From positions 35,939 through 99,938 of the forward strand of contig CAYSCW010000004.1 of NCBI GenBank assembly GCA_964429795.1: a stretch of DNA of 64,000 nt, in the 5' to 3' direction. Every line of letters starts with the position of its first letter. Position 1 is the first letter of the stretch. The notes beneath the pieces are model-generated. The model had not been told where the DNA came from and made no database searches. It was given only the letters and a program-made list of their open reading frames with translations. Below, piece by piece: positions 19,230 through 61,789 of this stretch. Made by a program: the position numbers and the translations under genes. The DNA is from an uncultured Eubacteriales bacterium. Lineage in GTDB: Bacteria; Acidobacteriota; Aminicenantia; Aminicenantales; Aminicenantaceae.

Positions 19230-19245
19230 CAGACTGGCTTTATAT

Positions 19246-20490: not shown

Positions 20491-20716
20491 TTTACCTCCT
20501 TCAAATAAAGACAATACTCTCTTTTGAGTTGCTGTGGTTTAACTTTTTAGGTGGGGAACAAGCAAAATCTCTTCCTTTTGAAAATATCAAAATATCAATA
20601 TTGCCATTTCAAGTCAACTGTTTCAAGCGAAATCATCTCTTTTTCCGTAATGAGGAAAGACATTTGATAGAATGAGGAATGGCGGCGCGGGTTTCCGTCC
20701 ATCCCCGACTGAATGG

Positions 20717-20745
20717 TTGACAGCGGGGAAATCAGGTGATATGTA
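20717..20745 (+). promoter_or_regulatory. Sigma70-like promoter candidate for the downstream hydratase/ADH operon
   Basis: TTGACA (20717-20722), 17 nt, TATGTA (20740-20745), about 60 nt upstream of the ATG at 20806. It lies in a 290-bp divergent intergenic region that also holds an AAAATATCAA direct repeat. Confidence 0.3.
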
Positions 20746-20805
20746 TTACATCTCAACTCCCATCAATCGACATTGATGAAAATCATCCTTTAAAAGAGGA
20801 ACATC

Positions 20806-21585
20806 ATGACTCAAAAAAATTATGAAAACGTCCTCTTTGAAATCAAAGAAGAAAAGGCGCTCTTAACCATCAACCGCCCCCCTTTAAACATACTGAATAT
20901 CGCGACAATGGAAGAAATGAATGAGGCTCTGCGTTCTTTAATGGAGAATATAGAAGTCAAAGTTGTGATTATATCCGGGAGCGGGGACAAGGCTTTCTCT
21001 GCAGGAGTGGATGTGGCTGACCATACAGAAGAAAAGGTAGAAAAGATGCTTCATGTCTTTCATGATATCTTCCGCAACCTCGCCAAACTCGATCAGGTCA
21101 CTGTGGCTGCCTTGAAGGGATTGACTTTAGGAGGAGGATGTGAAATCGCTCTTTTCTGTGATTTGATCATCGCCGCTGACAATCTGAAAATCGGACAGCC
21201 GGAGATAAAACTCTCAGTCCTTCCTCCCATAGCCCTATTGATCATGCCCCGCCTTGTGGGACTGAAAAAAGCAGCCGAGCTCCTGTTAACAGGAAAAACC
21301 ATCGATGCCCATGAAGCCGAGCGAATAGGTCTGATTAACAAAGTCACACCTCTTGACTCATTCGATTCTGAATTGGAGACCTTTATTCAACCCCTGACTG
21401 AGCTGAGCTTGGTGGGATTGAAGTATTCCAAAAAAGGAATCACCCTGGGATTAGAAACGGCTTTCTCGGAAGGACTGCAGAGGATTGAAGAGATTTATCT
21501 TGGAGAATTGATGTCCTCAGAAGATGCCCATGAGGGTCTCCGAGCCTTTATGGAGAAAAGAAAGCCTCTCTGGAAAAATAAATAA
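20806..21585 (+). CDS. Enoyl-CoA hydratase/isomerase (crotonase); candidate cyclohexa-1,5-diene-1-carbonyl-CoA hydratase (Dch-like)
   Basis: 259-aa crotonase fold (SGSGDKAFSAGVD, GGGCEIALFCD); immediately followed by a Zn-ADH, as in dch-had pairs. Confidence 0.65.
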   Translation: MTQKNYENVLFEIKEEKALLTINRPPLNILNIATMEEMNEALRSLMENIEVKVVIISGSGDKAFSAGVDVADHTEEKVEKMLHVFHDIFRNLAKLDQVTVAALKGLTLGGGCEIALFCDLIIAADNLKIGQPEIKLSVLPPIALLIMPRLVGLKKAAELLLTGKTIDAHEAERIGLINKVTPLDSFDSELETFIQPLTELSLVGLKYSKKGITLGLETAFSEGLQRIEEIYLGELMSSEDAHEGLRAFMEKRKPLWKNK

Positions 21586-21596
21586 AGGAGGAAGAA

Positions 21597-22625
21597 ATGA
21601 AAGCGGCTGTGTTTTATGAGCCTAACCAACCCCTCAAAATAGAGGACGTGGAAAAGCCGGAAATCAGCCTTCATGAGATCCTGGTGAAGGTCGCCGCATG
21701 CGGCGTCTGCAATACGGATCTGCATTATATCGATCATGGGGTTCCCACGTTCAAAAAACCACCCATGATCCTGGGCCATGAACCATCGGGGATTGTGGAG
21801 GAAGTCGGTGAAGAGGTCAAAAACTTTAAGGTCGGCGATCGTGTGCTCATCCCTCCTGTTTTTTCCTGCGGTTATTGTCCCAATTGCCGATTGGGTCGGG
21901 AGAATATTTGCTTCAACATGCTGATGTTAGGAAATCACATCGATGGGGCTTATGCAGAATACACCAAGGTGCCGGCCAAAGACTGCCAGCACCTTCCCGA
22001 GGAGCTTCCCCTTGAAGAATCGAGCATCATCGCTGACGCTATATCCACACCTTATCATGCGGTCAAAAACAGAGCTCAGGTCAAGCTGGGAGACTCGGTG
22101 GTGGTGTTTGGCTGCGGCGGAGTAGGTATAAACGTTGTCCAGATGGCAGCCGCTTCTGGCGGATCGGTCATTGCTGTGGATCTCGTGGATAAAAAATTGG
22201 AAATCGCAAAACAGCTGGGGGCACTGCACACCATCAACGCTTCAGGAAAAGAAGACAAGGAACTCCTCAAGGAGATACGCAAATTGACGGATGGAGGAGC
22301 GGATATCGCCATTGAAGCTATCGGCAATCCCAAGACCATAGAGCTGGCTTTCGGTGCGGTCAAGGCAGGTGGCCTACACTGTCAAGTGGGATACACTCAT
22401 CACAGCGTGTCTTTAAACGCAGCAAGATTGATGTTCCGAGAGATCGAAATCAAAGGCTCCCTGGGTTGCCGTCCTGTGGATTATCCCAAGATCATCGAGA
22501 TGGCAAAGACGGGGAAGATTCAACTCAAGCCTGTGGTCACCAACAAGTTCAAGCTGGAAGAGATAAACGATGCGTTCGACCTGCTAAGGAAGGGTGAAGC
22601 CCTGAGATCCATCATCGTCCTCTAA
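21597..22625 (+). CDS. Zn-dependent medium-chain alcohol dehydrogenase; candidate 6-hydroxycyclohex-1-ene-1-carbonyl-CoA dehydrogenase (Had-like)
   Basis: CGVCNTDLHY and GHEPSGIVEEVG zinc motifs plus a GxGxxG NAD site; its start lies 11 nt after the upstream hydratase stop. Confidence 0.7.
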   Translation: MKAAVFYEPNQPLKIEDVEKPEISLHEILVKVAACGVCNTDLHYIDHGVPTFKKPPMILGHEPSGIVEEVGEEVKNFKVGDRVLIPPVFSCGYCPNCRLGRENICFNMLMLGNHIDGAYAEYTKVPAKDCQHLPEELPLEESSIIADAISTPYHAVKNRAQVKLGDSVVVFGCGGVGINVVQMAAASGGSVIAVDLVDKKLEIAKQLGALHTINASGKEDKELLKEIRKLTDGGADIAIEAIGNPKTIELAFGAVKAGGLHCQVGYTHHSVSLNAARLMFREIEIKGSLGCRPVDYPKIIEMAKTGKIQLKPVVTNKFKLEEINDAFDLLRKGEALRSIIVL

Positions 22626-48489: not shown

Positions 48490-48571
48490 AAAAAAAGTTG
48501 CCAAAAGGAGAAGGGAGAATTATAATCCAGAAATAAAGATAATATTGAAACAAACCAAAAAGGAGGAAAGC

Positions 48572-49243
48572 ATGATGAGAAAAATTCCTAAATCTTATTT
48601 GGGTTTTGTCATCATCCTGGGAGCTGTTTGGGGCTTTTCCGAAGCTGCTCTGGGAATGTGGCTCCGAAGCTGTGCTTCCTTATACTCTGGTGCCATCATG
48701 ACAGGGGTAGCCTTGTTCTTTATGGCTTCCGGTTGGTACCTTACCAGGAACCTCCTCTGTATGGGATTCCTGATACTCATCACCAGCCTCTTCAAGATGT
48801 TCGACGCACTCCTCCTTTCGCTCCCCATCCAGCACGGAGCCATAGGAAATCCCATTTTTGCCTTTTTCACAGAAGGAATCGCCTTCCTGATCTTGATCGC
48901 TGTTTTCAACCAAAAACTGAAACAGAAAAGCGGAGGCCAAGCCTTAATGGGGGGAATGACTGCCATCCTGGCCGTGAATCTTTTCCCTTTGGTGAAGTAT
49001 GTCACGGGAGTACCAGCCTGTGTTGTCCCTGGAACAGGATATCCCCTCTCCCTTTACTATGCCCCATTAGCTGTTTTTCTATCTTTCCTGACTGTTCCTT
49101 TGGGTGCATGGGTCGGAGTGAAAAGCCAATCTCTTGAAACTATACTCCAATCATCTCGAATAGCAAGAAAGCTGAGTTTTATTTTTTCTCCCGGAACCTT
49201 GCTCTTGTGTTTGGCCCTCACAGCTCTCATCAGGCTGGGCTAA
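48572..49243 (+). CDS. Hypothetical polytopic membrane protein
   Basis: About 224 aa with 5-6 TM segments. AGGAGG RBS 5 nt upstream of the ATG at 48572. The longer listed ORF (from 48440) runs through the repeat element and is unlikely to be real. Confidence 0.4.
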   Translation: MMRKIPKSYLGFVIILGAVWGFSEAALGMWLRSCASLYSGAIMTGVALFFMASGWYLTRNLLCMGFLILITSLFKMFDALLLSLPIQHGAIGNPIFAFFTEGIAFLILIAVFNQKLKQKSGGQALMGGMTAILAVNLFPLVKYVTGVPACVVPGTGYPLSLYYAPLAVFLSFLTVPLGAWVGVKSQSLETILQSSRIARKLSFIFSPGTLLLCLALTALIRLG

Positions 49244-49273: not shown

Positions 49274-49903
49274 ATGGAAGAAGGAAGAAAGAAAAGGGGG
49301 AAAGCAATAACCAGAAGGGACTTCATAAAAGGATTTAGCGGCGGTGCTATAGGAGCAGCTGTGGCCCCTCGACTTCTCGCCCAGGAGGCTGAATCCCTTC
49401 AACCGGAAGCAGGGAAAGTTCCTCTTTATTCCAAGAAACCCATCACTCTTACAGTCAATGAAAAGAAATACTCAGTTGTGGTTGAGCCAAGGGAAACCCT
49501 TCTCCATCTCTTGAGAGAAAGACTGAACCTGACAGGGACAAAAATGACCTGCGACCGTGGTGAATGCGGAGGATGCACGGTCATCCTGGATGGAGTTACA
49601 GTCTATTCATGCATGTATCCTGCCATCAGGGCGGACGGCAAAAAAATCACTACAGTGGAAGGATTAGCCGTCGATGAGAACCTTCATCCTGTTCAAAAGG
49701 CCTTCATCGAAAAAGACGGTTACCAATGCGGCTTCTGTACGCCGGGATTCATCATGTCCTCTGTCGTTTTCCTCGAGAAAAACAATAACCCAAAAAGAGA
49801 AGAGATCAAGGCAGCTCTTTCAGGAAACATCTGCCGATGCGGTAACTATTTCAAGATTTATGAGGCCGTTGAAGCGGCAGCAAAAAACATGAGGAGGCCT
49901 TGA
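49274..49903 (+). CDS. 2x[2Fe-2S] small subunit of a xanthine-oxidase-family molybdoenzyme, Tat-exported
   Basis: Twin-arginine motif ITRRDFIKG plus a hydrophobic region; FeS motifs CDRGECGGCTV and CGFCTPG...CRCGNY. Confidence 0.8.
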   Translation: MEEGRKKRGKAITRRDFIKGFSGGAIGAAVAPRLLAQEAESLQPEAGKVPLYSKKPITLTVNEKKYSVVVEPRETLLHLLRERLNLTGTKMTCDRGECGGCTVILDGVTVYSCMYPAIRADGKKITTVEGLAVDENLHPVQKAFIEKDGYQCGFCTPGFIMSSVVFLEKNNNPKREEIKAALSGNICRCGNYFKIYEAVEAAAKNMRRP

Positions 49904-49904
49904 A

Positions 49905-52163
49905 ATGAAGAAAAAGGAATATTTATCAGAGCCAGAAGACTCTACCCTCCTCTATTATGAAGAGTTCAGAGACAAGGAAACAGAGGAACCCGAACAAATT
50001 CCTTCTCCTGAAAAAGAGAAATTCAAAATCATCGGCGCCTACACGCCAAGGATTGACGGGGAGAAAATAGTCACCGGCCAAGCGCCTTACACCCATGACA
50101 TTAAACTCAGAGGATTGCTCTATGGCAAGATTCTGAGATGCCCTCATGCTTGCGCAGAAATTGTTTCTGTGGACTTAAGCAAAGCTAAAAACCTGCCTGG
50201 AGTGAAGGCAGCCATTCAACTCAAAGAAGGACGAGTCAAATATGCCGGTGAACAGGTGGCTGCTGTGGCAGCTGTAGAGGAAAAAACAGCAGAGGAAGCT
50301 CTAGAATTGATCGAGGTGGTCTACAAAACCCTCCCTTTTGTGGTCACTGAAGAAAAAGCTATGGAGGAAGGCGCTCCACAGGTCCATGATGAACCCAACA
50401 TCCAAAAATTTAACGACTACTCCCGAGGAGACATCGAAAAGGGATTCAAGGAAGCCGATGTTGTCCTGGAGAGAACGTATAAAACAGCCGTGGAAATCCA
50501 TCATCCTGCAGAGACTCATGGCAGTGTGGCCAAATGGGCAGGGGATAGATTGACAGTGTGGGATTCCACTCAAGCCATCTTTGGCGTCAGGGATACTCTG
50601 GCCCGTGTCTTGGGAATTCCGGCAAGTCGAATCACAGTCATTAAGAAATATATGGGTGGAGGATTCGGAAGCAAATTGGGGTTGAATGATTACACTGTTG
50701 TTGCCGCCTTGCTGGCTAAAGAAGCCAAAAAACCGATAAAGATCATTCTTTCCCGTAAAGAAAATTCGCTCTGTGTGGGCAACCGCCCTTCCAGCCTCCA
50801 AACCATCAAAGGCGGAGTTAAAAAGGATGGCACTCTGACCGCCCTTTATCTGAAAAATTACACATCCGGCGGAATTCAAAGAGGCGACAGATGCTCAGAA
50901 CCTATCATCGATGTTTACAGATGCCCTCATTTAAAAGTGGAAGAATACAGTGTTTTCACCAATACGGGTGCGTCGCGACCAACCAGAGCTCCCGGGCATG
51001 TCCAGGGAACTTTTGCGCTGGAAGGCTTCCTGGAAGAGCTGGCCAATGAAATTGGTATAGATCCCTTAGAACTGAGGCAGAAAAATTACTCGACAAAAAA
51101 CGAAGGAGACACGGGTATACCTTATTCTTCTAAAGGACTGGATCAATGCTACAAGATCGGCGCAAAGAAGATCGGCTGGCAAAGAAGGAATAAGAACCCT
51201 GGAGATGGAAACGGTAAGATTCGTCGCGGTTTAGGAATGGCCAGCCAGATATGGTGGGGCGTGGGCCGGCCAGAGACGCTGGCCGATATTAAACTCCACC
51301 AGGACGGAAGTGTCGAGGTTATCTGCGGAACCCAGGACATCGGTTGTGGAACCAGAACCTATATGGCAACTATCACAGCAGAAACTCTCGGCCTTTTGCC
51401 AAAAGATGTGACGGTAAAAATCGGAAACACTATGTATCCCTGGTGCGGTTCATCGGGAGGAAGCACGACCACGCCATCAGTCGCTCCCGCTGTAAGGGAC
51501 GCCGCTCTTAAAGCAGCTGATTATCTTAGAAAGCTTGCTGCCAGTAAACTTGAAATCAGCGCAGATACTGTCGTCATCGCCGATGGGAAATTTTTCAGCA
51601 AGGGCGACCCTCCAAAATCCATCGCCTTTAAGGAGCTTCTCAGCGAGCTACGCCGCGAAAAAGTCTTTCATGGAGAGTATACAGGCCGGCCTTCAGGCTA
51701 TGCATACAACACTTTCGGAGCCCATTTTGCCGAAGTCGAAGTGGACACAGAGACAGGTCAAATCAAGGTCCTCAAGGTAGCTGCGGTCCACGAAATCGGA
51801 AGAGTCATGAACAGACAGACAGCAGAAAGTCAAGTTATAGGCGGTATCACACAGGGAGTGAGCACAGCCCTTTTCGAGCAGAGGATCATGGATAACACCA
51901 CAGGAAATCTGGCGAATCCCAACTTGCGGGATTACAAACTTGCAACCTCCATGGATATCCCTGAGGTAGAGATCGATTTTGTGGATATGGTCGACCCCAG
52001 GATCAACAATCTAGGAACCAAAGGGCTTGGAGAACCCCCTCGGATTCCAAGCTCAGCAGCTGTGGCCAATGCCGTCTATAACGCTCTAGGAGTGCATGTG
52101 CAAGAATTACCAATGACTCCAGACAAAGTCCTTCAAGCCCTGAGAAGAAAGGAGGTCGGCTGA
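49905..52163 (+). CDS. Molybdopterin-binding large subunit (CoxL/PaoC/HcrA-like)
   Basis: 752 aa; GGGFGSK Moco signature; its start lies 2 nt after the small-subunit stop. Confidence 0.85.
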   Translation: MKKKEYLSEPEDSTLLYYEEFRDKETEEPEQIPSPEKEKFKIIGAYTPRIDGEKIVTGQAPYTHDIKLRGLLYGKILRCPHACAEIVSVDLSKAKNLPGVKAAIQLKEGRVKYAGEQVAAVAAVEEKTAEEALELIEVVYKTLPFVVTEEKAMEEGAPQVHDEPNIQKFNDYSRGDIEKGFKEADVVLERTYKTAVEIHHPAETHGSVAKWAGDRLTVWDSTQAIFGVRDTLARVLGIPASRITVIKKYMGGGFGSKLGLNDYTVVAALLAKEAKKPIKIILSRKENSLCVGNRPSSLQTIKGGVKKDGTLTALYLKNYTSGGIQRGDRCSEPIIDVYRCPHLKVEEYSVFTNTGASRPTRAPGHVQGTFALEGFLEELANEIGIDPLELRQKNYSTKNEGDTGIPYSSKGLDQCYKIGAKKIGWQRRNKNPGDGNGKIRRGLGMASQIWWGVGRPETLADIKLHQDGSVEVICGTQDIGCGTRTYMATITAETLGLLPKDVTVKIGNTMYPWCGSSGGSTTTPSVAPAVRDAALKAADYLRKLAASKLEISADTVVIADGKFFSKGDPPKSIAFKELLSELRREKVFHGEYTGRPSGYAYNTFGAHFAEVEVDTETGQIKVLKVAAVHEIGRVMNRQTAESQVIGGITQGVSTALFEQRIMDNTTGNLANPNLRDYKLATSMDIPEVEIDFVDMVDPRINNLGTKGLGEPPRIPSSAAVANAVYNALGVHVQELPMTPDKVLQALRRKEVG

Positions 52164-53137
52164 TGAAAAATTTTATGATCGCCCAACCTCAATCAATCGA
52201 AGAGGCCGTTTCTTTGTTATCGGCAAAAAAAGAGAGCTATTACTTGATGGCTGGAGGAACAGATCTCATTGGAGAAATCAAGGATAATATAGTGGAACCA
52301 GATGTTGTTGTTGACCTAAGCTCTCTTCCCAATCTGTCCTCCATCAAAAAAGAGAAAAATGGAGTGAGGATCGGAGCCTTGACCACAGTGGCCGAACTGG
52401 CTGAAGACCGGATGATCAAGGAGGAATATCCAGGCCTTCATCAAGCCGCCAATTCTCTGGCCTCACCGCAGTTACGTAACGTTGGCACAGTGGGTGGCAA
52501 CCTCTGTCAGAGACCCCGCTGCTGGTATTACCGTGACTCTGAAGTCAAGTGTCGCAAAAAGGGGGGAAGCCGGTGTTACGCATACAGAGGAAGGAACAGA
52601 TATCATGCCATTTTAGGTGGAGGGCTCTGTTATATTGTCCATCCCTCTGACTTGGCTCCTATGCTTATCGCCCTGGAGGCAGAAATATCTATACATTCGG
52701 ATAAAGGAGAAAAAATTGTCCCGCTTGAGGATTTCTTCGTTCTTCCCAAGACAAACGTCCATAAAGAAAATGTTCTGGAGCCTGGAGAAATCCTCACGGA
52801 AGTAAGAATACCGGCATCTCAAACAGGAGATAAAAGCACCTACCTGAAGCTCAAGGAGAGAGGGACATGGGACTTCGCCGTGGTTTCTGCTGCGGTCAAA
52901 GGGACTCTATCAAAAGGTGCTTTTCAAAATATCAAGATTGTCCTGGGAGGAGTGGCTCCTGTCCCTTGGAGGATGAAGAAAGCCGAAGATATGATCAAGG
53001 GGAAAAAAGCAGCGGAAGATCTTCTCAGGGAAGCGGCAAGGGAAGAATTGAAAGAGGCTAACCCATTAGAGGAAAACGGATACAAGAAGGATCTTGTGGA
53101 AACTGTTCTCTACAGAGCTGTCCTTTCTTTGATGTAG
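52163..53137 (+). CDS. FAD-binding medium subunit carrying a Cys-rich insert (PaoB/HcrB-like, putative [4Fe-4S])
   Basis: LMAGGTDLIGEIKD FAD motif. The insert NLCQRPRCWYYRDSEVKCRKKGGSRCYA has C-x4-C-x9-C-x7-C spacing, which is absent from CoxM-type subunits. Its start overlaps the large-subunit stop. Confidence 0.75.
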   Translation: MKNFMIAQPQSIEEAVSLLSAKKESYYLMAGGTDLIGEIKDNIVEPDVVVDLSSLPNLSSIKKEKNGVRIGALTTVAELAEDRMIKEEYPGLHQAANSLASPQLRNVGTVGGNLCQRPRCWYYRDSEVKCRKKGGSRCYAYRGRNRYHAILGGGLCYIVHPSDLAPMLIALEAEISIHSDKGEKIVPLEDFFVLPKTNVHKENVLEPGEILTEVRIPASQTGDKSTYLKLKERGTWDFAVVSAAVKGTLSKGAFQNIKIVLGGVAPVPWRMKKAEDMIKGKKAAEDLLREAAREELKEANPLEENGYKKDLVETVLYRAVLSLM

Positions 53138-53212
53138 ATCTTCCTTCCAAAAATCTTTTGCGTTCGGAACAAACTGCAGATCGAGTACCGAAAAAAATTT
53201 AAGGGAAACAAC

Positions 53213-53695
53213 ATGAAAGAAAACATCCAATTTAAACTCAATGGCAAATCCGTTCGCTTGAGTATGGACGGGGAGCGCATGCTTTTATGGATTCTGCGCA
53301 CAGATTTTGGCCTGACAGGAGCTAAATACGGGTGCGGAGAGGGCTTTTGTGGAGCCTGCACCGTGCTTGTTAACAGGGAAGCCGTACGATCATGCCAGTT
53401 GCCTGTAAAGGATGTCAAAGGAAAAGAAGTGATGACTATCGAGGGCCTGTCTAAAAACGGGGAGCTTCATCCCCTGCAGAAAGCATTCATAAAACATGAT
53501 GCACTTCAGTGCGGTTTTTGTACTCCTGGGATGATCCTGAATGCCTACAGCATGATCCTCAAAAATCCCCAATCCTCTCCAGATGAGATTATTCAGGGGA
53601 TGGATGGAAATCTCTGTCGCTGCGGGTCTCATATCAGAATTGTCCAGGCTATCCAGACCGCAGCTAAAGAGATGAAAGGGATGAAAAAAAGATGA
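53213..53695 (+). CDS. 2x[2Fe-2S] small subunit of an IorAB-type two-subunit molybdenum hydroxylase
   Basis: 160 aa; CGEGFCGACTV and CGFCTPGMI...CRCGSH motifs; no signal peptide; overlaps the downstream large-subunit gene by 4 nt. Confidence 0.8.
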   Translation: MKENIQFKLNGKSVRLSMDGERMLLWILRTDFGLTGAKYGCGEGFCGACTVLVNREAVRSCQLPVKDVKGKEVMTIEGLSKNGELHPLQKAFIKHDALQCGFCTPGMILNAYSMILKNPQSSPDEIIQGMDGNLCRCGSHIRIVQAIQTAAKEMKGMKKR

Positions 53696-55848
53696 AAAAA
53701 GAAGACAATCCAGACCTAGATTTCAAAGATATCATGGTTCCCCCTTCTCTGAGTCGGCGAGAATTCCTCAAACTAGCAGGCGGAGGGATTTTCATCCTTT
53801 TTTCTGTGGGAGATTCTTGGCCTTTCCAGGAACAAAGAGGGCAAGCAAGATCTCGTTTTAACTATCCTGAAGATTTTAATGCCTACCTCAGAATCGGTGA
53901 AGACGGAAGGATCAGCTGTTTTACAGGGAAAATCGAGATGGGCCAGGGAGTGATTACTTCTCTGGCTCAGACATTAGCCGAGGAACTCGATGTTCGCTTG
54001 AATACAGTGGATATGGTTATGGGCGATACAGACCTCTGCCCCTGGGATATGGGAACTTTTGGGTCCATGACCACCCGCTTCTTCGGGCCTGCTCTCAGGG
54101 ATGCAGCAGCAGAAGCCAGGGCCGTCTTAGTGGAGTTAGCCGCCGAACATCTTGATGTACCTGTAAGCCAACTGGCAACAAAAGAGGGAATCATATTCGA
54201 TAAAAGACAGAAGAAAAATCAGGTCTCCTATGCCCAACTGGCCAAAGGGAAAAAAATCGCAAGACATCTCAAAACAAAACCTTCTCTCAAAAGCCCCGCG
54301 GAATTTTCTGTCATGGGCAAGCCTGCTTCACGAATAGACAGCTTGGAGAAGGTTACTGGCAAGGCTCAGTTTGCGGGAGATATTCGACTGCCCGACATGC
54401 TTTATGCGAGAATCTTGAGGCCTCCTGCCCATGGAGCAAAACTCAATAGTGTGGACACCTCAGTTGCCAAAAAAATGAGCGGCGTACATGTTGTTCAGGA
54501 TGGCGACCTGATCGCAGTCCTTCACAAGGATCCAGATGAGGCAGAAAAAGCCTTAGCCAAGATAAAGGCCCGGTTTGAGCCTCAGGAAGCGAAAGTAGAC
54601 GACAAGACCATATTTGATCATCTGCTCAATGTCGCTCCAGAAGGGGAAATCGTCGCCCAGGGAGGAGACATCAAATCAGGAGAAAAACTGGCTTCCACAA
54701 TTTTTGAGGAAACCTATTTAAATAGCTATGTGGCTCACGCTCCCATAGAAACACACACAGCTGTGACTCAAGTCGAAGGAAACAAGGTCTCAGTATGGGC
54801 ATCCACACAAACTCCTTTCAGCGCTAAAGAAGAGATATCTGAAGCCCTGGGTTTTCCTCCCGAAAACGTCCGTATCATTACCCCATTTGTAGGAGGAGGA
54901 TTCGGAGGAAAAACTCGAAACCAACAAGCTACAGAAGCCGCTCGGCTGGCAAAGCTGATCGGGAAACCTGTTCAGGTTGCCTGGACCCGTAAAGAAGAAT
55001 TCTTCTATGATACCTTCCGTCCTGCGGCTGTGGTCAAGATAAGATCGGGAATCACCCCCGAGGCTGAAATCATCTTCTGGGATTACACTGTCTATTTTGC
55101 GGGCGAAAGAGGCGCTCCGCAGTTTTATGATATACCTCATCACCGCACAGCCTCCACAGGAGGAGGCTGGCGTGGCACTCCCGGTTCCCATCCCTTCAGC
55201 ACAGGAGCCTGGAGAGCTCCTTCCAACAACACAAACACCTTTGCCAGAGAGTCTCATATCGATATCATGGGCTGCAAGGCAGGTGTCGATCCTCTGGAAT
55301 TTAGGCTAAAAAATTTGAAGGATAAAAGGATGCGCGGGGTTCTCAAGGCTGCAGCAGAGAAATTCGGCTGGACCCCGATAAAATCCCCCAGTGGGCGCGG
55401 CTGCGGGATCTCCTGTGGTATCGATGCAGGAACTTATGTTGCTGCCATGGCTGAGGTGGAAGTGGATAAGAAAAGAGGCCATGTGCAGGTTAAGAGAGTG
55501 GTGTGTGCTCAAGATATGGGCCTGGTGGTAAATCCCGAAGGGGCAAGAATGCAGATGGAAGGATGCATCACCATGGGATTGGGCTACGTCCTAGCTGAGG
55601 AGATTCACTTCAGAGGCGGAGAGATTTTCGACCTCAATTTCGATACCTACGAAATACCTCGTTTTTCATGGCTACCCAAAATCGAGACCGTGCTGATGGA
55701 GACAGGAGATTCCACTCCCCAGGGAGGCGGGGAACCAGCCATCATAAACATGGGTGGCGTGGTGGCTAACGCTATCTTTGATGCAGTAGGCGCCAGACTC
55801 TTCCAACTCCCTATGAATGCAAAACGAATAAAGGAAGCGTTACAGTAA
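53692..55848 (+). CDS. Molybdopterin large subunit of the IorB / membrane-bound aldehyde-dehydrogenase type, with a Tat signal
   Basis: 718 aa; Tat-like N-terminus SRREFLKLAGGGIF; GGGFGGK Moco motif. No FAD subunit is encoded with it. Confidence 0.8.
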   Translation: MKKEDNPDLDFKDIMVPPSLSRREFLKLAGGGIFILFSVGDSWPFQEQRGQARSRFNYPEDFNAYLRIGEDGRISCFTGKIEMGQGVITSLAQTLAEELDVRLNTVDMVMGDTDLCPWDMGTFGSMTTRFFGPALRDAAAEARAVLVELAAEHLDVPVSQLATKEGIIFDKRQKKNQVSYAQLAKGKKIARHLKTKPSLKSPAEFSVMGKPASRIDSLEKVTGKAQFAGDIRLPDMLYARILRPPAHGAKLNSVDTSVAKKMSGVHVVQDGDLIAVLHKDPDEAEKALAKIKARFEPQEAKVDDKTIFDHLLNVAPEGEIVAQGGDIKSGEKLASTIFEETYLNSYVAHAPIETHTAVTQVEGNKVSVWASTQTPFSAKEEISEALGFPPENVRIITPFVGGGFGGKTRNQQATEAARLAKLIGKPVQVAWTRKEEFFYDTFRPAAVVKIRSGITPEAEIIFWDYTVYFAGERGAPQFYDIPHHRTASTGGGWRGTPGSHPFSTGAWRAPSNNTNTFARESHIDIMGCKAGVDPLEFRLKNLKDKRMRGVLKAAAEKFGWTPIKSPSGRGCGISCGIDAGTYVAAMAEVEVDKKRGHVQVKRVVCAQDMGLVVNPEGARMQMEGCITMGLGYVLAEEIHFRGGEIFDLNFDTYEIPRFSWLPKIETVLMETGDSTPQGGGEPAIINMGGVVANAIFDAVGARLFQLPMNAKRIKEALQ

Positions 55849-55878: not shown

Positions 55879-56466
55879 TTACTTATTCTCTGTCTCTTTC
55901 TTGTAATCGTTCGGATTGTCGATATCCCGGAGAACTGCGGGAGTGTCTACCTCCACCTCCAGGGTATCCCCCGGATGATTGTAGACAATGCCTCGCAGGC
56001 CCACATCAGGGCTCAGATCTTCGATTTCTTTCCGGTATTTGACATCGATAAGGACCGGGTGACCTCGATTCTTTTTAAAGGCAGGAACGACGATTCCCTT
56101 TTTTGAGCTTTTGAAAGCCTCAATGACTTTATCCATGACAGAAGGAGGAATCGATGGTTGGTCACCCAAGCAGACCAAAACGCCTCGAATATTTTCCGGG
56201 ATGGCGTTAAGTCCCCATTGCACAGAAGAGAGCATCCCCTTTTTGTAATGAGGATTTACAGTGATGGTAACAGGAAGATCTTCTATTTTTTCTTCTATCT
56301 TTTCAGGATCTGCTCCCAGAACAACCAAGGCCTCATCTGCTTTCGACTGAATGACGTTGGTGACTACGGTTTCGACGATTGTCTTATCCCCAAAAGGAAG
56401 AAGAAGCTTGGGCTTCCCCATCCTTTTGGATTCTCCGGCCGCAAGAATGATTGCTCCTATCAACAT
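55879..56466 (-). CDS. mocA: Molybdenum cofactor cytidylyltransferase (MocA/MobA-like nucleotidyltransferase)
   Basis: N-terminus MLIGAIILAAGESKRMGKPKLLLPF, typical of MobA-like nucleotidyltransferases; 195 aa; adjacent to xdhC. Confidence 0.65.
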   Translation of the reverse strand: MLIGAIILAAGESKRMGKPKLLLPFGDKTIVETVVTNVIQSKADEALVVLGADPEKIEEKIEDLPVTITVNPHYKKGMLSSVQWGLNAIPENIRGVLVCLGDQPSIPPSVMDKVIEAFKSSKKGIVVPAFKKNRGHPVLIDVKYRKEIEDLSPDVGLRGIVYNHPGDTLEVEVDTPAVLRDIDNPNDYKKETENK

Positions 56467-57542
56467 CTTCCCTTCCTTCTTTCACGGATTTGGCTCCGGA
56501 CCCGTACGAGCTGGGCGGCGATGCTCAAAGCGATCTCTTCAACAGTCTTGGAGCCAATATCGAGGCCGATGGGGGAATGAACGCGGTCAAATTGTTCCTC
56601 TCTCGCCCAACCTCGCTCGAGGAATTTCTCCCTCATCATTTTCACTTTCCGAGCACTGCCGATCATGCCGATATAGGCAGCATCCGAAGCGATACACTCT
56701 CGAAGGGCTTCGGCGTCATAGTGATGTCCTCGAGTAGCGATCACCAAATAGGTATCTGGGCCTATAGGAAATTTTGTGATGGCCCTACTGATCTCATCGA
56801 TGATAAAATGATCCGCATCCGGAATGTTTTCTCTGTTGGCAAATTCTGGGCGATCATCGATGACCGTCACTTCAAAATCCAGAAAATTTCCCAGGTGAGC
56901 CACGGCACGGCCGACGTGTCCGGCGCCGGCAATTACCAATCGGGGCAATGGAATAACTGGCTCTAAGAAGAGAAGACTCTCCTTCACTCCCCTCTGCCTT
57001 TCCTGCATCTTTACCAGTGTGGGCCTTTCCTCCGCTAATGCCTTGGCAATATGGTCTTTTAATATCGATAGTGATTTTCCCAGGTTGGCCAGAGACTTCT
57101 CATTGCCTTTTATCCAATTTCGGAAGATGGAGATACTTCCGCCTGAAAATTCTTTTATCCATGTGGACAAAAGGCCATGCTTCCGGCGAAGGAAGGATTG
57201 CTGGAGATCTTTGAAGGCATTTTCGTGTTTCGTCGGTGAGACATCGAGAAGGATTCTTACTTGGCCTCCGCATATAGACTCTTCATCTGAAGAAATGTCG
57301 GCATTGAGGTCAAATTGATAAAGAAGAGAGCTTCCTCTTTTTAAGGCATCCTGGGCTCTCTTCAGGGCATCACCTTCCAACAGCCCGCCACCCAGAGTTC
57401 CGGCGAGGAGTCTTTCCGAAGAAAATACGGCTGATGCTCCTGGTACTTGAGGCGTAGAGCCCTTGGCCTCGATGATTGTGGCCAATACTACTTGCTTTTT
57501 CTCTTTTAATATCTCGGAGAGATGAACATAGATATTTTTCAT
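56460..57542 (-). CDS. xdhC: XdhC/CoxI-family molybdoenzyme maturation (Moco insertion) factor
   Basis: N-terminal XdhC_CoxI domain and a C-terminal Rossmann-like domain (LVIAGAGHVGRAVAHL); 360 aa; overlaps mocA by 7 nt. Confidence 0.75.
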   Translation of the reverse strand: MKNIYVHLSEILKEKKQVVLATIIEAKGSTPQVPGASAVFSSERLLAGTLGGGLLEGDALKRAQDALKRGSSLLYQFDLNADISSDEESICGGQVRILLDVSPTKHENAFKDLQQSFLRRKHGLLSTWIKEFSGGSISIFRNWIKGNEKSLANLGKSLSILKDHIAKALAEERPTLVKMQERQRGVKESLLFLEPVIPLPRLVIAGAGHVGRAVAHLGNFLDFEVTVIDDRPEFANRENIPDADHFIIDEISRAITKFPIGPDTYLVIATRGHHYDAEALRECIASDAAYIGMIGSARKVKMMREKFLERGWAREEQFDRVHSPIGLDIGSKTVEEIALSIAAQLVRVRSQIRERRKGRC

Positions 57543-57596: not shown

Positions 57597-58172
57597 TCAA
57601 CAAGGATCGCAGACATCTCCAAACCCGTGATGAGTGAAGATAGCCTTTCTCATCTGAGAAAAAGCATCTTTCTCTTCTATATCAAATACTCTTACTTCTT
57701 TGTCTCTAAGCAGGCGGAGAAAATCTTTGAGGATACTTTTTCTGATGACAAGAATAAGGCCCTTTGGAGGAGATGAGAGAGCCTGTCTCAAAGCTGACCA
57801 TAACCCTTCTCCCTTGATCTCCAGAGGACCGATTTCATCGACCACCAGAATATTGACTCCTCTGCTTCGCAAGATCTGATCTCTTGCGTGGGCCAAGGCT
57901 TCAGGAATAAAAAAATACGACCCGATTCTTTCCCATCCCTCTTCTCCCTCCCTGCGGATGTAAGGAATGTATTGCTCATCTTTTAGATCATATAAATCAT
58001 ATCCAAGAATTTCCTTGTTTCTAATAATAGCCACACTCAGAAAACCGGCTGTCTTAAGGTTTTCCCTCCTCAAACTATCAACAAGCCTCTTTAAAAAAGT
58101 GGTCTTTCCCGAATGAACAGGACCAGTAAGCACAAAAATCATGGATAAAAGATAATAAATAAGCGCAGCCAA
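57597..58172 (-). CDS. P-loop NTPase, THEP1/NTPase_1-like
   Basis: Walker A motif GPVHSGKTT and Walker B motif LVVDEIGPLE; about 180 aa; heads the xdhC-mocA operon. An alternative start MIFVLTG lies at 58142. Confidence 0.45.
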   Translation of the reverse strand: MAALIYYLLSMIFVLTGPVHSGKTTFLKRLVDSLRRENLKTAGFLSVAIIRNKEILGYDLYDLKDEQYIPYIRREGEEGWERIGSYFFIPEALAHARDQILRSRGVNILVVDEIGPLEIKGEGLWSALRQALSSPPKGLILVIRKSILKDFLRLLRDKEVRVFDIEEKDAFSQMRKAIFTHHGFGDVCDPC

Positions 58173-58401: not shown

Positions 58402-59565
58402 ATGCGGATTATTCTTTTTACAGGAAAAGGAGGCGTGGGGAAGACGACTCTCGCGGCAGCAACAGCGCTTCTTTCTGCCCAAAAAGGTCACAAGACCCTT
58501 ATCATCTCAGCTGACGCAGCACATAGCCTCTCTGATTCATTGGAGACTCAACTTTCCAACCAACCCCGCAATATAGCACCTAACCTTTACGGTCAGGAGG
58601 TCAATGCTCTTGAGGAAATCGAGAAGAAATGGGGAGAAATCAAAAACTATCTCGTCGCTTTTTTCTCCAGCCAGGGTATCGATACCATCGAGGCAGAAGA
58701 GATGAGTGTTTTCCCTGGTATGGAGGAACTCTTCAGCCTGATGGAAATCCGTCAATACCATAAAGACGAAGAATACGATGTTACCATCGTCGACTGTGCC
58801 CCCACTGGCGACACCCTCAGATTCTTGAGCGCCCCTGAAATTACCGGCTGGTATCTCAAACATATCTTTCCCCTCCAGAGAACCGCGGCGAAAGCGGTAA
58901 GGCCCGTAGCCAGTCGAGTCCTTCCTTTCCCTTTTCCAGAAGACAAGGTCTTTGAAGCCATGAAAAGCCTGACCACACAGCTGGCAGAGATGAAAGAAAT
59001 CCTTATCGATCCCCAAAAAACCTCCATCCGCCTCATCATCAACCCTGAAAAAATGGTGATCAAAGAAGCCCAGCGGGCTTATACTTTCTTCAACCTCTTC
59101 GGATATTCTGTCGATCTTGTCATCGTCAATCGCATCATTCCCGCTGAAGTCCGTGATGCCTATTTTATAAAATGGAAATCCATTCAGAAGGAATATCTGC
59201 AAATGATCAAAGAGATTTTTTCTCCTCTTCCCATTTTTTTCTCAAATCTCTTCTCCCAGGAAGTTCTGGGAAAAGAACTCCTCACCAAGATGGCTGGGAA
59301 AGTCTACGGGAAAGAGGATCCCACAAAATTGTTCTTCACCCAGAAACCAATATCCATCGAGAAAGCTGACGGAGGCTTTGATATTTTTTTGTATCTTCCT
59401 TTTGTCAAAAAGCGGGACTTGGACCTTTTCCAAAAGGGAGAAGAACTCTTCATCAAGGTTGGACATTACAAAAGAAATATACTTCTTCCTCAAACCCTTC
59501 TCAACTACTCTATTAAAGAAGCAAAGTTTGATAAGGAAATGCTGAAAATATGCTTTCGCCAATAA
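58402..59565 (+). CDS. ArsA/Get3-family anion-transporting-type ATPase (single-domain form)
   Basis: Deviant Walker A motif FTGKGGVGKTT; 387 aa. Confidence 0.75.
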   Translation: MRIILFTGKGGVGKTTLAAATALLSAQKGHKTLIISADAAHSLSDSLETQLSNQPRNIAPNLYGQEVNALEEIEKKWGEIKNYLVAFFSSQGIDTIEAEEMSVFPGMEELFSLMEIRQYHKDEEYDVTIVDCAPTGDTLRFLSAPEITGWYLKHIFPLQRTAAKAVRPVASRVLPFPFPEDKVFEAMKSLTTQLAEMKEILIDPQKTSIRLIINPEKMVIKEAQRAYTFFNLFGYSVDLVIVNRIIPAEVRDAYFIKWKSIQKEYLQMIKEIFSPLPIFFSNLFSQEVLGKELLTKMAGKVYGKEDPTKLFFTQKPISIEKADGGFDIFLYLPFVKKRDLDLFQKGEELFIKVGHYKRNILLPQTLLNYSIKEAKFDKEMLKICFRQ

Positions 59566-60024: not shown

Positions 60025-60681
60025 ATGAGCATCCAGATACAGCAGACCTCAAGGATTCTGCCGCGAAAATTGATTACCTCCTTTCCCCATCATCTAAGCC
60101 GGTTGGCTTCCCTGCTGATTAGCCTCCGAGTTAATCCCAACACCATAAGTGTTTTTGCTCTTCTGGCAGGATTGGGAGCTGGGCTGCTTTTTTTCTTCCA
60201 AAAAACTTTCTGGGCTGGCATAGTCATCATCATCTGCGGTCTCCTGGATATTCTCGATGGAAAGGTTGCTGTCGGCTCCGACAGGAAAAGTCTGTTTGGA
60301 GCCATATTCGATTCCACTCTCGATAGATACTCTGAATTTTTCATCTATCTTGGCCTTGCTGTCTATTTCAGGAATCACTGGGCTCTCTGGGTGGCAATCC
60401 TCGCATTCCTTGGCTCTGCGATGGTTAGTTATACCCGTGCCCGTGCCGAGGGATTAGGAGTCGAGTGCAAAGTAGGTATCATGCAGAGAGCCGAGAGGAT
60501 TGTTTTTCTCTCTTTAGGGTCCATCCTTGGTTCTCTTTTTAAAGTCTTTGATCCCTCCATTATCGGGGTCCTGATTCTGATCGCCACCTTTTCTAACTTC
60601 ACAGCTCTTCAAAGAACTTTCTACGTCAGAAAAGTGGAAAAACAAAAGAAATCAAAAAAGGAGGTCCTCACGAATGGATAA
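60025..60681 (+). CDS. CDP-alcohol phosphatidyltransferase (candidate phosphatidylinositol-phosphate synthase)
   Basis: CDP-OH_P_transf signature D-G-x2-A-x8-G-x3-D-x3-D in [31 protein letters not shown]; 218 aa, multi-TM; overlaps the MIPS gene by 8 nt. Confidence 0.7.
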
Positions 60682-61789
60682 AATTAGAGTCGCTATCATC
60701 GGAGCCGGCAACTGTGCTTCTTCTTTGCTTCAGGGAGTAGAATATTACAAAAATGCCAAGGAAACAGATTACATTCCTGGTGTGATGCATGTCAGCCTTG
60801 GTGGCTATCATATCCGCGATATAGAATTCGTCGCGGCCTTTGACATCGATAGAAACAAAGTCGGAAAGGACCTGAGCGAGGCAATATTTACTCGGCCCAA
60901 CAACACCACAAGATTTGCTGAGGTCCCTCGTCTCAACGTCAAAGTCGAGCGAGGCATGACCCACGACGGTCTGGGAAAGTACCTATCTGAAATCATCAAG
61001 AAAGCTCCAGGCTCCACAACCGATGTGGTCGGTATACTTAAAGAAGTCAAAACAGATGTGGTTATCAATTATCTTCCAGTAGGGAGTGAAGAAGCCACCA
61101 AATGGTACGTGGAACAAATCCTTGAGGCAGGCTGTGCTTTTGTCAATTGCATTCCCGTCTTCATCGCCAGCGAGAAATATTGGCAGAGAAGGTTCGAAAA
61201 GAAGAATCTTCCTATCATCGGCGACGACATCAAATCTCAAGTTGGGGCAACCATTCTCCACAGGACTCTGGTGAATTTGTATCTTGACCGGGGTATGCCC
61301 ATCGAAAGAACCTACCAGCTGAACACTGGAGGAAATACAGACTTCCTGAATATGCTGGAGAGGGAAAGGCTGGCGTCCAAGAAAAAATCAAAGACAAACG
61401 CTGTCACTTCTCAAATAAAAGCCAGAGGACTGGAAATTCATCCGGACAATGTCCATGTCGGCCCCAGTGACTATGTCCCTTGGCAGAAAGACAACAAGAT
61501 CTGCTTCTTGCGGATAGAGAGCCGCCATTTCGGCGATGTTCCCACCTACCTCGATTGCCGCCTGTCTGTGGAAGATTCTCCAAACTCTGCTGGTGTGGTG
61601 ATCGACGCTATTCGTTGCTGTAAATTGGCACTCAACAACAAATTGTCCGGAACTCTTTATGCTCCTTCCTCCTACTTCATGAAGACCCCTCCCAGACAGT
61701 ATACTGACACGGAGGCCAAGGAACAGACAGAGAAATTCATCAAAAAATACGGAAAAAAAGAAGCCAAACCAGCCACAAAAAAAATTTAA
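60674..61789 (+). CDS. myo-inositol-1-phosphate (inositol-3-phosphate) synthase, short archaeal/bacterial type
   Basis: N-terminus [26 protein letters not shown] with the NAD-binding and catalytic layout of about 370-aa MIPS enzymes; AAGGAGG RBS. Confidence 0.75.

Follow-up and report, generated by a model that had tools for sequence, protein, structure and literature searches.

E. coli PaoABC, a periplasmic aldehyde oxidoreductase of the xanthine oxidase family, binds the MCD form of the molybdenum cofactor (Moco) and prefers aromatic aldehydes, and its electron acceptor is still unknown (PMC3958847). Its export by hitchhiking, driven by PaoA, has been experimentally established (PMC4273604). 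A four-Cys [4Fe-4S] motif has been treated as a hallmark of PaoABC, and Flavobacteriaceae are reported to have a PaoABC-like system that lacks a Tat signal (PMC13404670).

The stretch of DNA analyzed here (64,000 nucleotides; hereafter, the window) belongs to a Candidatus Aminicenantes bacterium. A first-pass annotation had placed two xanthine-oxidase-family Mo enzymes side by side at 49274-55848, and both the open reading frames and their Pfam domains bear this out. All five ORFs lie where it had put them, as a small/large/FAD-subunit set (S1-L1-M1, set 1) and a small/large pair (S2-L2, set 2), and the Moco maturation genes mocA and xdhC do follow. We consider it likely that this operon, headed by a membrane protein gene (MP-S1-L1-M1-S2-L2) and accompanied by divergent maturation genes, codes for two separate Tat-exported Mo hydroxylases. 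The features of the locus are as follows.

48498..48526 (+): sigma-70-like promoter, best match TTGCCA-17-TATAAT (11/12), directly 5' of the MP gene
48572..49243 (+): MP, orphan polytopic membrane protein, 223 aa, about 7 predicted TM helices, directly 5' of S1
49274..49903 (+): S1, 2x[2Fe-2S] small subunit, 209 aa, N-terminal twin-arginine signal; Pfam Fer2 + Fer2_2
49274..49378 (+): Tat signal of S1, approximately residues 1-35: basic n-region, TRRDFIK, GFSGGAIGAAVAP, then RLLA|Q as the putative cleavage site
49905..52163 (+): L1, molybdopterin-binding large subunit, 752 aa; Pfam hammerhead + MoCoBD_1 + MoCoBD_2
52163..53137 (+): M1, FAD subunit with putative [4Fe-4S] insert, 324 aa; Pfam FAD_binding_5 + CO_deh_flav_C
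52505..52630 (+): Cys-rich insert of M1, residues 115-156; ligand candidates C120, C130, C138 and C156
53213..53695 (+): S2, 2x[2Fe-2S] small subunit, 160 aa, no signal peptide; Pfam Fer2 + Fer2_2
53692..55848 (+): L2, IorB/NicB-type permuted molybdopterin-binding large subunit, 718 aa; RR motif SRREFLK + LAGGGIFILFSVG
55879..56466 (-): MocA-like cytidylyltransferase for the molybdenum cofactor (produces Moco in its MCD form); Pfam NTP_transf_3, TIGR03310
56460..57542 (-): XdhC-family Moco insertion/sulfuration chaperone; Pfam XdhC_CoxI + XdhC_C
57597..58172 (-): NTPase_1 (PF03266) P-loop protein, recurrent neighbor of the maturation genes; Pfam

According to Pfam, both enzymes have the large-subunit domains of the xanthine oxidase family (hammerhead and two Moco-binding domains), and S1 and S2 the two [2Fe-2S] motifs of its small subunits. 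The eight Cys ligand motifs of S1 and S2 recur in their orthologs (68/68 in the case of S1). In a search of curated HMMs, no subunit of either set reached an equivalog cutoff; hence, they are members of the family and not named orthologs. The stop and start codons of neighboring genes overlap or abut, indicating co-translation, and the promoter-like sequence is a possible operon start, judging by its consensus match. The small-large-medium order described for set 1 was confirmed and is invariant in all of the 80+ loci examined; paoABC of E. coli is arranged small-medium-large and hcrCAB, we assume, small-large-medium.

The MocA-like protein falls slightly short of the TIGR03310 cutoff (183.8 versus 186.45 bits), and XdhC scores 295 bits, with a cutoff of 350, on NF045664, "XdhC family aldehyde oxidoreductase maturation factor". 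Both genes adjoin the operon and recur with S-L-M, mocA in both phylogenetic groups, and the adjoining mocA-like gene suggests MCD as the cofactor form of set 1. The NTPase_1 gene is present in 12 Aminicenantes loci and, in an Eisenbacteria genome, directly 3' of an S2-L2 pair that stands alone. A TonB-dependent receptor gene (Pfam) also adjoins the locus, which implies an outer membrane and, hence, a periplasm. The window codes for oxygen-sensitive enzyme types as well (acyl-CoA dehydratase activase, HGD-D); the organism thus looks anaerobic, making an O2-type acceptor implausible. No electron-acceptor gene was identified.

RRDFIKG had been read as a twin-arginine signal on the 2Fe-2S subunit of set 1. 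The motif is present (TRRDFIKG, residues 13-20), a 13-residue uncharged stretch follows TRRDFIK, and [ST]RRxF[LIM] is found in 69/69 S1 orthologs from Aminicenantes, Ignavibacteria, Calditrichota, KSB1 and Acidobacteriota, with identity down to 41%. The PaoA model aligns to S1 from residue 9, signal included. A TATFIND-like rule, for which the experimentally verified signal of E. coli PaoA served as positive control, accepted S1, L2 and the control but no other subunit; L1 and M1 carry no signal, and the [2Fe-2S] subunit is the only one in set 1 that does. Throughout the window, RR-type motifs occur only in S1, L2 and one spurious 116-aa ORF.

The top PDB matches of L1 are PaoC (318 bits) and HcrA (316 bits), with identities of 31% to PaoC, 33% to HcrA and 33% to E. 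coli XdhA, while its highest NCBIfam matches are XdhA models (474 bits). Residues E710, Q223, L258 and R361 (the last belonging to the R-A-P-G loop) show no variation across 71/71 orthologs, and E710 and Q223 align with the catalytic Glu (E692) and Mo-site Gln (Q211) of PaoC. L1 and PaoC have the E, Q, K-L and R-A-P-G signatures in common: the residue following GGGFGxK is Leu in both and Gln or Glu in XDH-type references, and the R-A-P-G loop is shared with PaoC alone among the references. PaoC R440, whose position was confirmed from the 5g5g/5g5h difference, aligns in a gappy region with the invariant Trp451 of L1 (71 sequences; one Gly). Since this Arg is not kept, substrate specificity may differ. 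Two checks suggested by the first-pass annotation concerned large-subunit phylogeny and the active-site loop. In a distance-based neighbor-joining tree with four reference sequences only, PaoC was the nearest reference to L1 (99% support), and the L1 clade stood apart from all characterized enzymes. The active-site loop is ASRPTRAPGH in L1 and VAYRCSFR, which includes the Cys that binds Cu, in CoxL of form I CO dehydrogenase. The latter was discarded as a candidate, as L1, L2 and the third Mo enzyme of the window have no C[ST]FR motif.

The best PDB matches of M1 are the three solved FAD subunits that bear a [4Fe-4S] cluster, 5y6q_B (1.8e-56), PaoB (2e-40) and HcrB (4e-33). All three contain the insert, a real insertion of about 45 residues that is absent from the other FAD subunit of the window (6544-7428). 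C120, C130, C138 and C156 are invariant in 73/73 orthologs, so that the insert is not missing from any of them, and align with C119, C129, C138 and C157, the sole four Cys of PaoB; its assignment to the PaoB/HcrB [4Fe-4S] type therefore holds. The ligand motif proposed for it, C-x4-C-x9-C-x7-C, holds in part. The literal string exists (C115-x4-C120-x9-C130-x7-C138), but the motif is off by one: C115 is variable (65/73 orthologs) and has no equivalent in the aligned PaoB and 5y6q_B, and C156 had been omitted. The cluster ligands are most likely C120-x9-C130-x7-C138-x17-C156, and C115 is probably not one of them. The ligands of HcrB are reportedly spaced C122-x15-C138-x7-C146-x8-C155, as attributed to Unciuleac and colleagues in 2004, a numbering that agrees with that of the 1rm6 chain in the M1 search. 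M1 has His at the position of HcrB C146, and C130 where HcrB has Trp.

Set 2 had been assigned to the IorB or membrane-aldehyde-dehydrogenase type, with SRREFLK carried by the large subunit and without an FAD subunit, and our results agree. The domain order of L2 is permuted (MoCoBD_2 fragment, hammerhead, MoCoBD_1, MoCoBD_2; Pfam), and its residues 65-189 align with HcrA 463-587, a segment that therefore lies N-terminal in L2. Residues 20-718 are colinear with 8gy3_C residues 16-767, RR motif included, although the relationship is distant (E = 2.6e-51). SRREFLK spans residues 21-27, and the RR motif is found in 8/8 L2 loci and 119/119 database homologs. GxGE[PAS] is present in 117/119 of the latter, the GGGEP of L2 aligning with GLGEP of 8gy3_C. 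Relatives of L2 bear the automated source names isoquinoline 1-oxidoreductase or nicotinate dehydrogenase subunit B (IorB/NicB). The N-termini of 8 S2 orthologs have no signal. S2-L2 also occurs by itself, unaccompanied by FAD or cytochrome genes: there is no FAD gene in the stand-alone modules of L086 and L088 and no cytochrome c gene adjoining the homologs in L086, L087 and L088. The window itself contains no genuine CxxCH gene, the sole match being a 60-aa ORF (9676-9858) inside another gene. Without a cytochrome c subunit, set 2 fits the two-subunit IorAB subtype and not the three-subunit ALDH.

We propose that the cofactors of both enzymes would be assembled in the cytoplasm and the folded enzymes exported by the Tat pathway. 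Enzyme 1 would be a PaoABC-like heterotrimer for which MocA makes the cytidine-dinucleotide Moco and XdhC inserts it, L1 and M1 crossing the membrane as hitchhikers on the signal of S1, in the way demonstrated with PaoA of E. coli. Its Mo center, now periplasmic, would hydroxylate an activated C-H, most likely of an aldehyde, with oxygen from water and Glu710 of L1 as the base; the substrate class is the weakest step of this proposal. Electrons may then pass from Mo to the two [2Fe-2S] clusters of S1, FAD, the [4Fe-4S] cluster of M1 (C120, C130, C138, C156) and an acceptor. Enzyme 2 would be a heterodimer of the IorAB/NicAB/membrane-aldehyde-dehydrogenase type without FAD, in which L2 bears the Tat signal and S2 hitchhikes; no cytochrome c subunit being present, electrons would leave the [2Fe-2S] clusters for an acceptor.

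Other readings of set 1 have to be considered. It could resemble 4-hydroxybenzoyl-CoA reductase, run in reverse, with ferredoxin electrons entering via the [4Fe-4S] cluster to dehydroxylate a phenolic CoA thioester. The near tie between HcrA and PaoC on L1, the insert that HcrB shares with M1, the small-large-medium order and the benzoyl-CoA-pathway-like genes in the window would all fit. However, CoA thioesters are cytoplasmic, whereas the Tat signal is conserved in every S1 ortholog; the Cys spacing of M1 is PaoB-type, HcrB having no C130 equivalent and using a C146 that M1 does not have; and TIGR03193/03194/03195 give 165.8/453.2/195.7, far below their cutoffs of 257.8/994.55/404.55. Moreover, the tree places HcrA not with L1 but with the third Mo enzyme of the window (3683-7428). 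The latter had been described as a MOP-like FeS-Mo fusion, but it comprises a fusion (3683-6547) and a separate FAD subunit (6544-7428) and is thus not MOP-like; with 919 bits on TIGR03194 (HcrA; cutoff, 994.55) and its grouping with HcrA, it is the HcrA-like protein of the window in sequence terms. We therefore regard the reductase reading as extremely improbable, in line with the first-pass annotation, which had thought it unlikely. An exported set 1 acting on something other than an aldehyde (a nicotinate-, quinoline- or purine-like N-heterocycle or other activated carbon), its likeness to PaoABC being architectural only, is unlikely but deserves more weight. The XdhA models at the top of the NCBIfam list, the low identity to PaoC, the invariant Trp in place of Arg440 and the isolated L1 clade all point that way. 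Against it stand the Leu after GGGFGxK, the R-A-P-G loop shared with PaoC alone and the aldehyde oxidoreductases 5y6q and PaoABC as best structural matches of S1 and M1; purines, besides, are unusual periplasmic substrates.

The location of both enzymes is likewise open to other interpretations. The RR motifs could be relics or chance matches in cytoplasmic enzymes, as the Tat-less system of Flavobacteriaceae (PMC13404670) might suggest, but this is very improbable, given that motif and hydrophobic stretch are kept across S1 orthologs as divergent as 41% identity and all 119 L2 relatives, and that the motif is otherwise confined to one spurious ORF in the window. For set 2, an A-x-A cleavage site is not evident in the L2 signal, which may stay as a membrane anchor. 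The uncleaved N-terminus would then tether S2-L2 on the periplasmic side of the cytoplasmic membrane and electrons would go to a membrane component, possibly MP or quinone, instead of a soluble carrier. No A-x-A follows the 13-residue hydrophobic stretch (LAGGGIFILFSVG|DSWPF), the closest solved relative (8gy3) is a membrane-bound enzyme, and in L090 MP lies directly 5' of the S2-L2 pair alone. However, a stable anchor would normally be longer than 13 residues, L086 and L088 have S2-L2 but no MP, and the solved acetic-acid-bacterial ALDH is presumably anchored by its cytochrome subunit, which is missing here. On balance, we consider such a tether somewhat unlikely.

MP did not figure in the first-pass annotation. 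It has no Pfam match even at E<=10, and its 1163 homologs are all named "hypothetical". All Aminicenantes loci for which upstream sequence exists (about 30) have its gene directly 5' of S-L-M, and, as it heads S2-L2 in L090, it can accompany either enzyme type in Aminicenantes. Cys34, Cys150, Glu24 and Asp78 are invariant and His88 near-invariant; the AF2 model (pLDDT 54) is unusable. A comparison with E. coli YagU showed that the two are unrelated. MP might serve the Tat-exported xanthine-oxidase-family enzymes of Aminicenantes as their dedicated partner in the membrane, acting as a docking site or electron outlet to the quinone pool or as a substrate/product channel, an idea that we put forward as speculative and rather doubtful. 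If MP were the electron acceptor, it would be a first physiological one for PaoABC-type enzymes.

Compared with known systems, S2-L2 shares with IorAB, NicAB and the membrane-bound aldehyde dehydrogenase of Gluconobacter (PDB 8gy3) the small 2x[2Fe-2S] subunit, the permuted large subunit, N-terminal RR motif included, and the lack of an FAD subunit, but the membrane ALDH and NicB subtypes pass their electrons out through a cytochrome c subunit or domain, which S2-L2 does not have. Thauera aromatica HcrCAB (PDB 1rm6) resembles set 1 in its three subunits, in the [4Fe-4S] insert at the equivalent place of the FAD subunit and in the score of HcrA with L1, about level with PaoC. It differs in that HcrC has no Tat signal, the HcrB Cys are at C122, C138, C146 and C155, HcrA groups with the third enzyme (3683-6547) and, unlike set 1 as proposed, it reduces a CoA thioester in the cytoplasm. 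The Methylobacillus sp. aldehyde oxidase (PDB 5y6q) is the best solved match of S1 (3e-47) and M1 (about 2e-56) and has the four-Cys insert of M1, without a C115 equivalent, although its large subunit is a weaker match to L1 (289 bits, residues 111-743 only). By its sequence, set 1 is PaoABC-like but not a PaoABC ortholog. It misses the HMM cutoffs for PaoA (NF008514; 186.9 versus 322) and PaoC (NF041671; 445.5 versus 1180), the three PaoABC models all scoring well below cutoff, and it differs from PaoABC (YagTSR, PDB 5g5g) in gene order (S-L-M versus S-M-L), the 31% identity of L1 to PaoC, the Trp that replaces Arg440, the extra variable Cys (C115), the orphan membrane-protein gene upstream and a host that looks anaerobic. 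Nevertheless, both have three subunits with 2x[2Fe-2S], FAD and Mo, a Tat signal on the small subunit only, a [4Fe-4S] insert of equal four-Cys spacing in the FAD subunit, the catalytic Glu, Mo-site Gln, Leu after GGGFGxK and R-A-P-G loop, and an XdhC-type chaperone gene close by, with MCD implied for set 1 by mocA.

All five genes that the first-pass annotation had assigned to two neighboring Mo hydroxylases were recovered with the same boundaries: set 1 (S1, L1 and M1, for the small [2Fe-2S], large Mo and FAD subunits; order S-L-M) and set 2 (the small/large pair S2-L2). The Moco maturation genes it had placed after S2-L2 are also there, on the minus strand, and a membrane-protein gene (MP) precedes S1.

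Features of the locus and of the third Mo enzyme (window positions)
3683-6547, minus strand: third enzyme, FeS-Mo fusion, 954 aa
6544-7428, minus strand: third enzyme, separate FAD subunit, 294 aa
46337-48244, plus strand: TonB-dependent receptor, just upstream of the operon
48498-48526: best promoter-like site (11/12 consensus match), ahead of the MP gene
48572-49243, plus strand: MP, polytopic, about 7 TM segments, 223 aa, 30 bp ahead of S1
49274-49903, plus strand: S1, 209 aa; Pfam Fer2 + Fer2_2
49905-52163, plus strand: L1, 752 aa; Pfam hammerhead + MoCoBD_1 + MoCoBD_2
52163-53137, plus strand: M1, 324 aa; Pfam FAD_binding_5 + CO_deh_flav_C
53213-53695, plus strand: S2, 160 aa; Pfam Fer2 + Fer2_2
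53692-55848, plus strand: L2, 718 aa; Pfam order MoCoBD_2 fragment, hammerhead, MoCoBD_1, rest of MoCoBD_2
55879-56466, minus strand: MocA-like cytidylyltransferase; TIGR03310 183.8 bits (cutoff 186.45)
56460-57542, minus strand: XdhC-family chaperone; NF045664 295 bits (cutoff 350)
57597-58172, minus strand: PF03266 NTPase (NTPase_1, weak DUF2478; P-loop)

Stop and start codons overlap or abut at S1/L1, L1/M1 and S2/L2. None of the five structural proteins reached an NCBIfam equivalog cutoff (0/5); hence, they are family members rather than named orthologs. The nearest database relatives all come from Candidatus Aminicenantes or Acidobacteriota MAGs. One database protein matches L1 at 100% identity; exact-sequence look-ups of the two yielded no contig. 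Terminator-like sites occur in the window at chance level (13 versus 12.6 expected) and are thus uninformative about operon ends, and neither the window nor, at E<=1, the region ahead of the operon gave a hit to an Rfam element, Moco riboswitches included. Also on the plus strand are an ArsA/Get3-like ATPase with a C-terminal HSP20-like domain (58402-59565) and, beyond it, a CDP-alcohol phosphatidyltransferase and a myo-inositol-1-phosphate synthase (60025-61789), which suggest inositol-phospholipid synthesis.

The N terminus of S1 (MEEGRKKRGKAITRRDFIKGFSGGAIGAAVAPRLLAQE) agrees with the twin-arginine signal predicted for the [2Fe-2S] subunit of set 1. It passes a TATFIND-like rule that asks for the RR context and 13 or more uncharged residues, as do L2 and the experimentally verified signal of Escherichia coli PaoA, used as a control, while no other subunit in the window passes; the rule-based check thus accepts both signals proposed at first pass. 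The pattern [ST/N/P]-R-R-x-F-[LIM], with a hydrophobic stretch rich in Gly and Ala after it, was found in all full-length small subunits (69/69), two seeming exceptions being artefacts of ORF calling or pattern search. The PaoA signal takes PaoB and PaoC across the membrane by a three-component hitchhiker mechanism (PMC4273604). The TonB-dependent receptor gene adjoining the operon implies an outer membrane and, hence, a periplasm.

The best solved matches of M1 are 5y6q_B (1.8e-56), PaoB (2e-40) and HcrB (4e-33), the three FAD subunits known to have an extra [4Fe-4S] cluster. Five cysteines lie in the insert region (115, 120, 130, 138 and 156). The C-x4-C-x9-C-x7-C string noted at first pass is literally present, but its register is off: C115 is variable (8 of 73 orthologs have Asn or Thr, PaoB has Leu and 5y6q_B has Arg), and C156 is invariant instead. 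When the 73 orthologs are aligned with E. coli PaoB, C120, C130, C138 and C156 are invariant and match PaoB C119, C129, C138 and C157, its only cysteines. The insert, whose possible absence from orthologs had been a concern, thus keeps its four cysteines in 73/73. The ligand set is probably C-x9-C-x7-C-x17-C, a PaoB-type spacing, whereas HcrB has a Trp at the C130 position and uses a Cys (146) where M1 has His. This four-Cys motif is regarded as a PaoABC hallmark (PMC13404670). The other FAD subunit of the window (6544-7428) lacks the whole insert. In database loci L042-L083 (Ignavibacteria, Calditrichota and KSB1, 44 to 52% identity), the FAD subunits have a fifth conserved Cys (Y-H-C). It falls at the position of the HcrB ligand Cys146 and, added to the four PaoB-type cysteines, unites the PaoB and HcrB patterns.

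L1 shares 31 to 35% identity with PaoC, HcrA, E. coli XdhA and the third enzyme, and its bit scores for PaoC (318) and HcrA (316) are nearly equal. A phylogeny of the large subunits, envisaged at first pass, was built by neighbor joining (Kimura distances, 744 columns, 300 bootstraps, four references); the L1 clade is monophyletic (100% bootstrap), and PaoC plus the L1 clade are split from XdhA, HcrA and the third enzyme with 99% support, a grouping that, with four references only, is indicative rather than conclusive. Invariant in 71 L1 orthologs are E710 (equivalent to PaoC E692, the catalytic Glu), Q223 (the Mo-site Gln), the Leu after GGGFGxK and an R-A-P-G loop, the last two shared with L1 by PaoC alone among the references. 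PaoC Arg440 is replaced by an invariant Trp in the L1 orthologs, in a gappy part of the alignment.

The CSFR loop of CoxL, suggested at first pass as a marker, is absent from all three Mo enzymes of the window (L1, L2 and the third enzyme), and a CoxL-type CO dehydrogenase was rejected for set 1 on this ground. Xanthine dehydrogenase was rejected from the tree and the active-site residues. As for 4-hydroxybenzoyl-CoA reductase, already considered unlikely at first pass, the HMM scores, the Cys spacing (PaoB type, not HcrB type) and the position of HcrA across the 99% split all led to its rejection. From the parallel with PaoABC and 5y6q and from the shared Leu and R-A-P-G signatures, our best guess for the set 1 substrate would be an aldehyde, the weakest of our inferences.

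A genome scan for set 1 relatives retrieved 80 loci, about 40 from Aminicenantes (65 to 93% identity to L1) and about 40 from Ignavibacteria, Calditrichota, KSB1, Melioribacteraceae and other Acidobacteriota (44 to 52%). The small-large-medium order described at first pass is invariant in every one. MocA-like and XdhC-like genes recur beside S-L-M in both groups, and neighbor clustering over about 80 loci found no conserved cytochrome or ferredoxin gene there. Since S2-L2 is present in only about eight Aminicenantes S-L-M loci, the two sets are neighbors rather than one system. In 13 Aminicenantes loci (including L002, 13273-14436, and L089, 9604-10672), the place of S2-L2 right after the FAD subunit is taken by a Peptidase_C26/GATase-like gene, whose product (about 385 aa) seems to have a signal or TM segment at its N terminus. 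The NTPase_1 gene (PF03266) recurs beside xdhC and mocA in 12 Aminicenantes loci and, in an Eisenbacteria genome, comes right after a stand-alone S2-L2 (L086, 8271-8849); it may be an uncharacterised maturation factor of Moco enzymes. The TonB-dependent receptor is also found in locus L014 (67% identity), and unrelated ones lie upstream in five Ignavibacteria-group loci (L072 and L074 among them); they may hint at outer-membrane substrate uptake, an association that is not general. Many TPA MAG records named "uncultured Eubacteriales bacterium" (L005, L006, L008-L010, L013, etc.) have loci that are 76 to 93% identical to this cluster and share its synteny, and such labels on Aminicenantes-like clusters look wrong.

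Set 2 fits the IorAB-type pair proposed for it, with a permuted L2, an RR motif on the large subunit and no FAD gene accompanying the pair. L2 65-189 matches HcrA 463-587 yet lies before the hammerhead domain, and the predicted domain order is the IorB-type permutation. Residues 20-718 are colinear with the large subunit of a solved membrane-bound aldehyde dehydrogenase (8gy3_C), in an alignment that takes in LSRREFLK versus LSRRNFL. S2 has no signal. The RR motif is present in 8/8 L2 proteins of the synteny set (that of the window among them) and in 119/119 full-length database homologs, 117 of which have the catalytic motif G-x-G-E-[PAS]; JGI names for these relatives are isoquinoline 1-oxidoreductase or nicotinate dehydrogenase subunit B. 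The hydrophobic stretch of L2 leads into DSWPF with no A-x-A site, and the signal possibly stays as an uncleaved anchor. S2-L2 occurs alone (L088), followed only by NTPase_1 (L086) or beside MP-S-L-M (L087), with no adjoining FAD or cytochrome gene in these three loci; it is a self-contained module. The window has no genuine CxxCH gene, the single match being a 60-aa ORF inside another gene.

MP matched no Pfam family, even at E<=10, and, compared directly, is unrelated to E. coli YagU, encoded beside paoABC. All of its 1163 homologs are labelled hypothetical, and an AlphaFold2 model (46-sequence alignment) reached a mean pLDDT of only 54 and a pTM of 0.43, a confidence too low for use. Its invariant residues are C34, C150, E24, D78, N93-P94, Y162-Y163 and R221, with H88 and C213 near-invariant. 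Wherever an Aminicenantes locus includes upstream sequence, MP is the gene immediately before S-L-M; the 44 to 52% identity group lacks it. On long contigs, one homolog precedes S-L-M (L089), a second precedes S2-L2 alone (L090, as BLASTP confirmed), and another (L091) has no direct coupling to either enzyme. Being found upstream of S-L-M or S2-L2, MP tracks Tat-exported enzymes of both types and is a candidate partner for them.

The "MOP-like fusion" assigned to 3683-7428 does not hold, as this enzyme has its own FAD subunit and an Hcr-like Mo part, which aligns end to end with the HcrA model (919 bits, cutoff 994.55) and pairs with HcrA at 100% in the tree. Unlike HcrB, its FAD subunit lacks the [4Fe-4S] insert. 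The window does contain three Mo hydroxylase architectures, as claimed: set 1, set 2 and this Hcr-like enzyme. The latter lies near benzoyl-CoA-pathway-like genes (16365-22625), a region with an acyl-CoA dehydratase activase, an HGD-D/BcrB-like protein, enoyl-CoA hydratases, an ADP-forming CoA ligase and an ADH resembling 6-hydroxycyclohex-1-ene-1-carbonyl-CoA dehydrogenase. Together they could make up an anaerobic CoA pathway, aromatic or alicyclic, whose Hcr variant is unusual.

In the mechanism that we consider the most likely, MocA would make the cytosine dinucleotide form of Moco and XdhC would insert it into both enzymes, which would fold in the cytoplasm with their cofactors (FeS, and FAD in set 1) before Tat export, S1 carrying L1 and M1 across and L2 carrying S2. 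The periplasmic Mo center would hydroxylate an activated carbon with water as the oxygen source. Electrons of set 1 would pass from two [2Fe-2S] clusters to FAD, [4Fe-4S] and an acceptor; those of set 2 would exit from the [2Fe-2S] clusters. Oxygen is an unlikely acceptor, since acyl-CoA dehydratase activase and HGD-D, both oxygen-sensitive enzyme types, are encoded in the window. The hosts of the set 1 clade look anaerobic, which sharpens the question of the electron acceptor of PaoABC-type enzymes without O2.

Both architectures are well described and relatives are already auto-labelled YagR or IorB/NicB; therefore, these results mostly refine annotation, and MP is the only lead to anything new at this locus. 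To our knowledge, no PaoABC-like enzyme of this kind has been studied in Aminicenantes, Ignavibacteria, Calditrichota, KSB1 or Acidobacteriota. Across these groups we define a coherent, widespread PaoABC-like clade, marked by a universal Tat signal, a PaoB-type putative [4Fe-4S] site and a fixed small-large-FAD order, unlike the small-FAD-large order of E. coli paoABC.
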